Assembly (NCBI GenBank): GCA_030536575.1
Contig: JAUNPS010000026.1
Coordinates: 361-64,360 of the forward strand
From: Eubacteriales bacterium
GTDB taxonomy: Bacteria; Bacillota; Clostridia; Lachnospirales; Lachnospiraceae
Direction of reading: 5' to 3'
Length of the DNA stretch: 64,000 bases
Under the pieces are notes generated by a model. The model was not told the DNA's origin and searched no databases. It saw nothing but the letters and a program-made list of their open reading frames with translations. Made by a program: the position numbers and the translations under genes. This document shows, piece by piece, positions 54,244 through 55,403 of the stretch. The number at the start of each line of letters is the position of its first letter. Positions within the stretch are counted from its first letter, which is position 1.

Positions 54244-55335
54244 ATGAAAACAGGAGCATTGATTATCGCTTCGCTGGATTTTGGCAGGGCAAACCGGGAC
54301 AGTGAGGATATGGCGGTTTTTCTGCCGATGCAGCATTTGGATGGGACGACGGTGATTAAGCGGGAGATTTTTACGCTTCGGAAGGCGGGGATTTCGCCGG
54401 TGATGGTGCTTTGTGGCTATCAGCGGGAGGTGCTGAAGAACCATTTGAGCCATAATGGGGTGATTTTCTGTGAGGATGAGGCGTTTGCGGAGCATGGATT
54501 TGCGGAGACGCTGAAGGTTGGGATGGATTTTGCGGCCGGGCTATGTGAGCGCGTTCTTGTCGTGCCGGTGGAATGTCCGGTGTTCTCCAGCAAAACCGTG
54601 GAAACCCTGATGGAGTGTGAAGAAAGTACGGTTCCGACGTATCAGGGCACGCCGGGAAAACTGTGGCTGCATGTGTTTGGCGGGGAGCCGAAAACGACTT
54701 CCGCGGAAGAGGAGGGAGTAACCTTACCGGGCGGTTTTGTATCCGGCAGGGAGCCGAAAGCGGCGCTCCCGGAAGAGGAGGGAGTAACCTTACCGGGCGG
54801 TTTTGTATCCGGCAGGGAGCCGAAAGCGGCATTCTTGGAAGAGGAGGGAGTGGCCTTACCGGGCGGTTTTGTGTCCGGCAGGGGGCCGGAAGCGGCGTTC
54901 GTGGAGGTAGAGGATGCCGGGATTTTGTATTCCCTGACAGAGGAAAACGGAATTCGGAAGGTTCAGGAATATGCCAGGCGGCAGCGGGAAGCGAACGCAT
55001 TGCAGGTTAAATTAAAGGTGATGCTGACGAAGGAAGAGGACTTCTTCGGGCCTGGGGTTTATCAGCTCCTGCGTGGTATCGATGAGACAGGCTCCATGCA
55101 GGCCGCCGCGGCAAAAATGCAGATGTCCTACACAAAATGCTGGAAAATGGTAAATAAAGTCGAGGCACAGATGGGATTTAAGTTCGTGAACCGGGTCAAT
55201 GGCGGCCGGAACGGCGGCAACTCGACGCTGACCGAAGAGGCGCGGGATTTCCTGGATCGGTACCGGGCGCTGACAGAGGATATCCGTCGGATGAGCCGGA
55301 GCTTTTTCGACATTTATTTTCAGGATTTTCAATAG
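54244..55335 (+). CDS. Fusion regulator: degenerate MobA/MocA-like nucleotidyltransferase fold + C-terminal ModE-type winged HTH
   Basis: N-terminus MKTGALIIAS..LPMQHLDGTTVIKRE resembles NTP_transf_3 but lacks the GxSxRM motif. C-terminus FFGPGVYQLLRGIDETGSMQAAAAKMQMSYTKCW..GGRNGGNSTLT is ModE-HTH-like. Confidence 0.8.
   Translation: MKTGALIIASLDFGRANRDSEDMAVFLPMQHLDGTTVIKREIFTLRKAGISPVMVLCGYQREVLKNHLSHNGVIFCEDEAFAEHGFAETLKVGMDFAAGLCERVLVVPVECPVFSSKTVETLMECEESTVPTYQGTPGKLWLHVFGGEPKTTSAEEEGVTLPGGFVSGREPKAALPEEEGVTLPGGFVSGREPKAAFLEEEGVALPGGFVSGRGPEAAFVEVEDAGILYSLTEENGIRKVQEYARRQREANALQVKLKVMLTKEEDFFGPGVYQLLRGIDETGSMQAAAAKMQMSYTKCWKMVNKVEAQMGFKFVNRVNGGRNGGNSTLTEEARDFLDRYRALTEDIRRMSRSFFDIYFQDFQ
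54683..54900. repeat. In-frame tandem repeat, 3.3 x 66 bp (22 aa EPKAALPEEEGVTLPGGFVSGR)
   Basis: Units start at 54683, 54749, 54815 and 54881 (partial). Confidence 0.95.
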
Positions 55336-55342
55336 GAAAGCG

Positions 55343-55403
55343 TTGACGGGACAGGGAAGGTGCAGTATAATTTTCTTAGCGTTATTTTTTAGAAAAAATA
55401 ACG
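55343..55403 (+). promoter_or_regulatory. modABC promoter with a ModE-type operator overlapping the transcription start
   Basis: TTGACG-17-TATAAT (55343-55371); 24-bp palindrome CGTTATTTTTT-AG-AAAAAATAACG (55380-55403). Confidence 0.8.

Follow-up and report, generated by a model that had tools for sequence, protein, structure and literature searches.

How is the uptake of molybdate controlled in bacteria that carry none of the familiar regulators at their mod operons? Molybdenum homeostasis is known almost entirely through Mop-bearing ModE proteins, the molybdenum cofactor (Moco) riboswitch and a few tungstate regulators, and many gut Clostridia, including abundant Lachnospiraceae, are without these at their mod operons. 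The question is raised by a 64,000-nucleotide stretch of the genome of a member of the Lachnospiraceae (Eubacteriales bacterium, GenBank assembly GCA_030536575.1, contig JAUNPS010000026.1, positions 361 to 64,360 of the forward strand; hereafter the window), in which the genes for the molybdate transporter, modABC, are preceded by a gene (54244–55335, + strand) for a protein of 363 amino acids (aa) that joins a degenerate MocA/MobA-like domain to a C-terminal winged helix-turn-helix (HTH) of the ModE type. This gene probably encodes a local ModE-type repressor of modABC, the input domain of which is a repurposed nucleotidyltransferase of Moco synthesis.

The C-terminal part of the protein (aa 263–358; 55030–55317, + strand) is a winged HTH with a long C-terminal helix. 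It matches the NCBIfam model ModE_repress (TIGR00637) at aa 269–354 (E 1.5e-16; 60 bits, which is under the model's curated cut-off of 98.5 bits) and the Pfam family HTH_1 at aa 275–334 (30.3 bits). In a profile made from 21 homologues, the C-terminal part matches PDB entry 2ijl, a ModE-N protein, with an E value of 2.5e-15, and the same profile matches ModE of Escherichia coli (1b9m, E 2.4e-11; 1b9m/1o7l ~3e-11). As to membership of the LysR family, HTH_1 is present yet lies at the C-terminus, and the Pfam scan found no LysR_substrate domain in the protein; homologues are labelled in the databases either “LysR family transcriptional regulator” or “ModE-like protein”. The Pfam scan of the fusion protein also gave no match to TOBE/Mop (PF03459).

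The N-terminal part (aa 1–149; 54244–54690, + strand) is a Rossmann-like core of the nucleotidyltransferase fold, as judged from Pfam, NCBIfam, an AlphaFold2 model searched with Foldseek, and alignments. PF12804 (NTP_transf_3, MobA-like) is matched at aa 30–139 (E 2.9e-8; 34.5 bits, with a cut-off of 27), and in NCBIfam the N-terminal part is matched best by the DVU_1551 family (NTP transferases), with MocA second. In the AlphaFold2 model (mean pLDDT 71), confidence is good across the core of the N-domain and the HTH, and poor at aa 15–35 and aa 149–215; Foldseek matched the model in the PDB to 3d5n, 6plj, Rv0371c (2we9) and the N-domain of GlmU, each with probability 1.0. The MobA-like fold ends in a strand and helices (aa 216–251, VEVEDAGILYSL...; 54889–54996, + strand), which could be placed from the secondary structure of the model and by alignment to a DVU_1551-like enzyme. 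A sequence-only reading of the window had proposed a ModE-type regulator of reversed domain order, with a MobA/MocA-like fold in front of a ModE-like HTH and without Mop/TOBE domains. These features of that reading are confirmed and its interpretation as a whole is supported in part, with the correction that the N-domain is nearer to the MocA and DVU_1551-type transferases than to MobA.

A gene-fusion artefact was ruled out as the origin of this architecture, which occurs in 185 species genomes and in hundreds of protein clusters. The architecture is thus real, widespread and hitherto uncharacterised: a search of the published literature turned up no paper that describes or characterises a MobA/MocA–ModE fusion, just as no characterised example had been known to the sequence-only reading, and the family is large and annotated automatically under the two labels given above.

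Is the N-domain still an enzyme? It was aligned with the canonical MobA encoded in the same gene cluster (mobA, 61862–62455, + strand), with a MocA-like protein encoded on contig C38 of the same genome, and with a DVU_1551-like enzyme from a related genome. The nucleotide loop reads VILAGGASSRMGREK in MobA (with LAGGASSRMG intact), YLAAGNSRRFGRNK in the MocA-like protein and AAGGLSSRMKEFKPFLPI in the DVU_1551-like enzyme, and ALIIASLDFGRANRDSEDMAVFLPM in the fusion; that is, the glycine-rich AGGxSxRM loop has been exchanged for AS-LDFGRANRDSEDMAV-FLPM, and the G-loop position in the core reads AS-LDFGRANRDSEDMAVFLPM. The loss of the GxSxRM loop, already seen in the unaligned sequence, is hereby verified against the MobA of the window. 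In addition, the lysine of the FKP motif is absent, the metal-binding Asp of DxP (after strand 4) has become Glu (PVECP), and, compared with MobA, MocA and the DVU_1551-like enzyme, a helical hairpin of ~30 aa has been deleted ahead of the final NxNTPED strand. In the MobA/MocA fold, this hairpin is thought to assist the binding of molybdopterin. What follows the deletion, aa 216–251, aligns to the ...DADTPED end of MocA-like enzymes and is modelled as a strand and helices.

All four losses (loop, Lys, Asp and hairpin) are common to 21 of 21 aligned members of the clade, in which (L/T)A(G/A)GxSxR(M/F)G plus Lys is replaced by AS(L)DFGRANRDSEDMAVFLPM, and the DxP region reads PVE(C/Y)P, with Glu or Gln where the Asp stood. 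Because of these losses the N-domain does not appear to be an enzyme, and because the genome has MobA and MocA-type genes of its own, it appears to be spare; as judged from its sequence, it is a non-catalytic, spare paralogue in which nucleotidyl transfer activity is predicted to be absent. The possibility that the fusion is the real MobA of this genome was ruled out by the canonical mobA and the mocA-like gene on C38. In the 21-member alignment, the N-domain is conserved to the same degree as the HTH, and its invariant residues follow strands 1–4 (FLPM/GTT, GYQ, ED, PVExP). Since this is where the fold forms its substrate cleft, the position of these residues suggests a retained binding function.

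What, then, would the HTH bind? The promoter of modA (-35 TTGACG, 17-bp spacer, -10 TATAAT; 55343–55371, + strand) is of the sigma-70 type with 11 of 12 consensus matches, and behind it is a ModE-type operator, CGTTATTTTTT-AG-AAAAAATAACG (55380–55403, no strand assigned), which overlies the expected transcription start. This box is 44 nt past the stop codon of the regulator gene, 8 bp past the -10 and 38 bp ahead of the modA start at 55442. The palindrome CGTTAT-N12-ATAACG that the sequence-only reading placed after the modA -10 is therefore there, but its description as a perfect 24-bp palindrome does not hold, as it is a dyad of 11+2+11 with a central AG that is not self-complementary. The geometry of the box is that of the CGnTAT-N12-ATAnCG type of dyad at mod promoters, a feature of membership of the ModE family. 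The consensus for E. coli ModE is, as previously quoted, atCGnTATATA-N6-TATATAnCGat (PMC545781), and the motif of Methanosarcina acetivorans ModE, validated by electrophoretic mobility shift assay, is RTTATGT-N8-RCATAAY (PMC12327845); the core common to both, (C)G(T)TAT-N12-ATA(A)C(G), is identical in geometry to the present box.

The genome scan that had been suggested for CGTTAT-N12-ATAACG gave a single exact match in the 4.8-Mb assembly, i.e., the box at modA. A position weight matrix (PWM) scored the modA site at 39.1 bits, the runner-up in the genome at 16.9 and the best site of a reversed-genome control at 21.4; this matrix was built from 27 pattern-selected sites, the outer hexamers of which are invariant by construction and hence were not used as evidence of conservation. 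A larger regulon was not found, as the PWM scan of the whole genome gave no second site above background. Thus, the predicted regulon in this genome is modABC alone (55442–58253, + strand; modA 55442–56308, modB 56448–57134, modC 57153–58253; assigned by domain matches). A look for public RNA or DNA sequencing runs that might bear on expression gave none.

If the box is the operator of the regulator, the two would be expected to occur together. A profile search of species genomes gave 185 loci with relatives, of which 80, from other species, were retrieved for comparison. These are mostly from Lachnospiraceae, and also from Acetivibrio, Acetobacterium, Eubacteriaceae, Hungatella, Clostridium and Oscillospiraceae. 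Molybdenum genes surround the regulator gene in most of these loci, commonly in the order MoCF–moeA–mobB–regulator–modABC, MoCF–regulator–modABC, or modABC–regulator. A box with 11–12 of 12 matches lies upstream of modA in 33 of the 47 modA-bearing loci among the 80, where ~7e-4 per 300-bp region would be expected by chance. In close relatives the box nearly always starts 7–9 bp after TATAAT, within flanking sequence that has diverged; in the Jingyaoa/Marvinbryantia/Muricoprocola group the right half-site alone has been kept exactly. A chance palindrome was ruled out, as the box is unique in the genome and recurs at the same promoter position across species. In distant members (29–33% identity), the box directly precedes either the regulator gene (L057, L081, L089) or a modABC–regulator operon (L043, L047, L069, L082, L086), positions that imply a putative autoregulation. 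At three distant loci (L043 1054–1077, L047 1064–1087, L081 3959–3982) the box abuts a TTGAC -35 rather than lying downstream of the -10, and here the regulator may act otherwise, by activation or by occlusion of the -35.

A survey that sampled 201 genera from the same bacterial family points in the same direction. A gene for a ModE-type HTH is present in 54 of the 201 genera, as full fusions in ~22 and as short HTH-only proteins (113–170 aa) in ~30. The exact box occurs in 15 of the 54 genomes with such a gene vs 12 of the 147 without (Fisher p 6e-4), a count that is weak at the level of whole genomes, as the reversed-pattern control hits many of them; the location of a box with respect to ModE-type genes and modA is what is informative. 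Of those 15 boxes, 11 lie no further than 7 kb from the HTH gene, and four no further than 90 bp. Where the gene is absent, the boxes have GC-rich, unrelated centres, are equalled in number by the reversed-pattern control, and look like chance. The co-occurrence of family and box, which the sequence-only reading had proposed to examine across Clostridia, is therefore supported both by the modA loci and by the genus survey, and on this comparative evidence the box can be assigned to the ModE-type HTH, whether or not an N-domain is fused to it. Among the HTH-only forms, those at G097:C9, G153:C34, G154:C5 and G174:C107 (loci L102–L104) are ModE-N proteins with a box 14–90 bp away and Moco genes adjoining.

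Could the palindrome be something other than the operator of the fusion, either a hairpin in the leader RNA of modA or a site for some unrelated factor? Once transcribed, the box can form a 10-bp A/U-rich hairpin. However, the fold energy of the modA leader is unremarkable (z -1.6; 15 of 200 shuffles fold equally well), no terminator-like site was predicted at the leader, no Rfam family was matched anywhere in the 64-kb window, and the inner dyad positions among related sites are often unpaired (11–20 of 27), with essentially no covariation. A riboswitch or other RNA element was ruled out by these four results. Given also that the box agrees with the experimentally defined ModE boxes (PMC545781, PMC12327845) and travels with ModE-type HTH genes, a role other than that of operator is highly improbable. 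Nor is another protein at hand to explain the box. The genome contains no other ModE-type HTH (two weak matches are ordinary LysR-type open reading frames of ~310 aa) and no Mop protein, the sole TOBE domain being that of a MalK-type sugar ATPase. A separate canonical ModE or Mop protein, which would have accounted for the box, was looked for, and none was found in a genome that is 91% complete.

The origin of the N-domain bears on what it may bind. When aa 1–149 were searched against 1.84 billion representative proteins, 523 clusters matched at E <= 1e-3, and 64 of the best 150 representatives also carry a ModE-type HTH. These HTH-bearing relatives form a graded series. In the intact grade all catalytic motifs and the full hairpin are present, e.g., in P0139 (AAGLSSRM..FKP, VDIP), which matches the DVU_1551 family model at 5e-55, MocA at 3e-34 and ModE_repress at 2e-16, and in the fusions of an Acetobacterium and a Eubacteriaceae locus (L080, L083). 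In the intermediate grade AAG and DxP are kept and SxRM is lost (L043, L071, L079, L082 and others); these adjoin modABC, and L043 and L082 have boxes. In the degenerate grade, which is the clade of the window (Blautia-like), AAG, DxP and SxRM are all gone. Those enzyme relatives that have no HTH are transferases of the DVU_1551 type, in many cases joined to HD and histidine-phosphatase domains, and by sequence these are the closest enzymatic relatives of the N-domain of the regulator. One such transferase with intact motifs and an HD and/or histidine-phosphatase fusion is encoded at L100 939–2051 (G071), with a radical SAM gene adjoining; P0161, P0193, P0245, P0254, P0167 and P0186 are further intact-motif fusions of this kind.

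Could the fusion then be a bifunctional enzyme–repressor that still makes molybdopterin dinucleotide, comparable to BirA, which is both ligase and repressor? This may hold for P0139, L080 and L083, distant relatives that have the same HTH and keep every catalytic motif. For the protein of the window we give it hardly any credence: the Gly-Gly of the loop, SxRM and Lys are missing from the whole clade, Asp has become Glu, ~30 residues have been deleted, and the genome has a canonical mobA and mocA as well.

The domain make-up of the protein, its loss of motifs, the operator and its position, the conservation of the operator within the family, and the lack of any other ModE or Mop protein are established by sequence, structure prediction and comparative genomics. 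We infer from these that the protein represses rather than activates, that it binds as a dimer, that a ligand governs it, and which ligand this may be. The C-terminal winged HTH would bind the CGTTAT-N12-ATAACG dyad, presumably as a dimer, and as the dyad is right behind the -10 of modA, this would block initiation at PmodA. The remnant of the active-site cleft would bind a molecule that reports molybdenum sufficiency, most likely a molybdopterin-type cofactor or its dinucleotide form, as a corepressor, and its occupancy would switch DNA binding, as biotinyl-AMP does for BirA or phosphoribosyl pyrophosphate for PurR of Bacillus subtilis. The ancestral substrates of the transferase fold are CTP or GTP and Mo-molybdopterin. 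Because of these substrates, and because intact enzymes carry the same HTH, cofactor as corepressor is the most economical model; the existence of intact MocA-like domains fused to this HTH also strengthens the case for a sensor. That the N-domain binds the cofactor or a pterin-nucleotide is a tentative suggestion. With the same reserve, the family as a whole may be conceived as a protein sensor of Mo-molybdopterin or its cytosine or guanine dinucleotide, in which a retired active site lets the cofactor, as corepressor, halt the import of molybdate when the pool is full.

Several points weigh against this model. The incomplete genome could hold an undetected ModE, and the related loci are linked by phylogeny, such that the evidence from conservation is not fully independent. 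The case for a sensor is weakened by the loss of the phosphate-binding loop and the hairpin in this clade, as a result of which the ancestral ligands may not bind; the domain may now have another ligand, or none, and the replaced loop (aa 15–35), which may matter for function, is modelled at low confidence. HTH-only ModE-N forms are present in ~30 of the 201 genera, several of them beside the same box, so DNA binding would need no N-domain and regulation without a sensor would be possible. Finally, ModE of M. acetivorans bound DNA in vitro independently of molybdate (PMC12327845), and control by a ligand is therefore not to be assumed.

Some of these points suggest a different reading, in which regulator and operator stand, but the N-domain binds no small molecule and is a protein–protein module or a scaffold for oligomerisation. 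As a module, it would dock on MobA/MocA, MobB or MoeA and report the load on the cofactor assembly line; as a scaffold, it would leave control solely to the abundance of the regulator. Two triple fusions are relevant here: P0128 (496 aa) comprises a canonical MobA, then a degenerate domain, then a ModE HTH, and P0179 (509 aa) has a MocA-like enzyme in place of the MobA. Such Rosetta-stone fusions hint at physical contact between the regulator and a real transferase, and the ATG of the regulator gene, which the stop codon of mobB immediately precedes, is likewise a hint of physical interaction. The disappearance of both nucleotide loop and hairpin and the pairing of HTH-only relatives with the same box also fit an N-domain without a ligand. 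However, the residues of the cleft (GYQ, ED, PVExP, FLPM, GTT) are conserved beyond the needs of a scaffold, and the intact-enzyme relatives with the same HTH indicate an ancestral small-molecule site. On balance, this reading is rather unlikely.

Less likely again is that molybdate or tungstate has become the ligand of the N-domain, which would then do the job of ModE through a different oxyanion pocket. This would be classical ModE logic, as molybdate transport is the sole predicted target; no Mop protein that could sense molybdate is encoded in the genome, and the rebuilt loop, together with conserved polar residues (T35, T36, K39, N66, H67, H70, N71), could form an oxyanion site. However, no oxyanion sensor built on this fold is known, enzyme relatives share several of the conserved residues (e.g. 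H67), which are hence inherited, not new, and the relatives with intact catalytic motifs suggest nucleotide or pterin binding as the starting point.

How does a ModE-type repressor with a repurposed transferase as its input domain compare with known systems? With ModE of E. coli, MopA and MopB of Rhodobacter and ModE of M. acetivorans it shares the type of winged HTH and the CGnTAT-N12-ATAnCG geometry, and with ModE also the predicted target, modABC, and an operator over the transcription start. ModE differs in having an N-terminal HTH and Mop/TOBE domains, whereas in the fusion the HTH is C-terminal, Mop/TOBE is absent and the partner has the nucleotidyltransferase fold. According to a review from 2024, ModE proteins with Mop domains are so far the only metal sensors of this HTH family (PMC11672702). 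The stand-alone ModE-N proteins, genes for which have been noted in Desulfovibrio (PMC545781), include the closest HTH sequence (2ijl, above), and the short forms of Lachnospiraceae adjoin the same box; these proteins have no fused partner, whereas the fusion has one. The MocA, MobA and DVU_1551 transferases have the same fold, the DVU_1551-like enzyme aligning motif by motif, and the fusion is likewise encoded among Moco genes; unlike them, it has lost the G-loop, Lys, catalytic Asp and hairpin, and has gained a DNA-binding domain.

There are several regulators built on the folds of enzymes or pseudo-enzymes: BirA, PurR of B. subtilis (phosphoribosyltransferase fold), NrtR (Nudix) and MocR/GabR (aminotransferase). 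In these, the fold of a pathway enzyme retains the pocket for its ligand and is coupled to an HTH, such that a metabolite controls transcription. The design proposed for the fusion resembles this principle, with different folds and pathways, and with a ligand that here is putative; we know of no member of the group with a MobA/MocA fold or a ModE HTH. Among the tungstate-responsive regulators of mod and moa genes, TunR comprises Mop domains and a recombinase-like DNA-binding domain, and TaoR an HTH and a PBP-like domain. Control of mod and moa genes by the finished cofactor is an established strategy, that of the Moco riboswitch (PMC2408646). The riboswitch is an RNA, and the search of the window with Rfam was negative, whereas the fusion is a protein.

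The variable, disordered loop of the fusion (aa ~149–215; pLDDT <50) stands where the MobA/MocA hairpin was deleted, and contains an in-frame tandem repeat of 66 bp x 3.4 (54679–54900, + strand; Tandem Repeats Finder), the unit of which encodes 22 aa, EEEGVTLPGGFVSGREPKAA. As aa 216–251 after the loop still belong to the enzyme fold, the repeat lies inside the fold and not between the domains. Most homologues, close ones included, are ~300 aa and without the tandem repeat; one (P0022) has an unrelated, independent proline-rich (PSP-rich) repeat at the same loop. This is a site that tolerates and attracts expansions.

The regulator gene closes a string of co-oriented genes (51352–54243, + strand) for a MoCF-domain protein (51352–52407), moeA (52423–53628) and mobB (53698–54243). 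Immediately upstream of the molybdenum cluster is a gene for an IS110-family transposase (49808–51118, - strand; E 1.8e-75). Downstream, the ModC-like ATPase (57153–58253, 366 aa) has a C-terminal extension of ~130 aa without a TOBE match, and hence the usual domain for trans-inhibition of ModC by molybdate is not recognisable. Between fdhD (- strand) and the MOSC, moaC, moaA, mog and mobA genes (+ strand) there are three direct copies of a ~62-bp unit (59103–59261; 35-nt core, 63–100% identity).

If the N-domain binds the cofactor or a precursor of it, the family would be the first known protein transcription factor to read the status of the molybdenum cofactor; it would parallel the Moco riboswitch at the level of protein, and its circuit would resemble that of BirA, with a metal cofactor as the signal. 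The series from intact to degenerate would then run from bifunctional enzyme–repressors (the intact MocA–HTH proteins of Acetobacterium and Eubacteriaceae) to the pseudo-enzyme sensors of the Blautia-like clade, a clean natural case of the change from enzyme to sensor, and the N-domain would be usable as a biosensor for the cofactor. If the N-domain binds nothing, the family still illustrates the reuse of the ModE HTH with new partners. In either case, for the gut Clostridia in question, the family offers a testable candidate answer to how molybdate uptake is controlled, in which the operator is defined, there is one clear target, and one domain is a candidate for the sensor.

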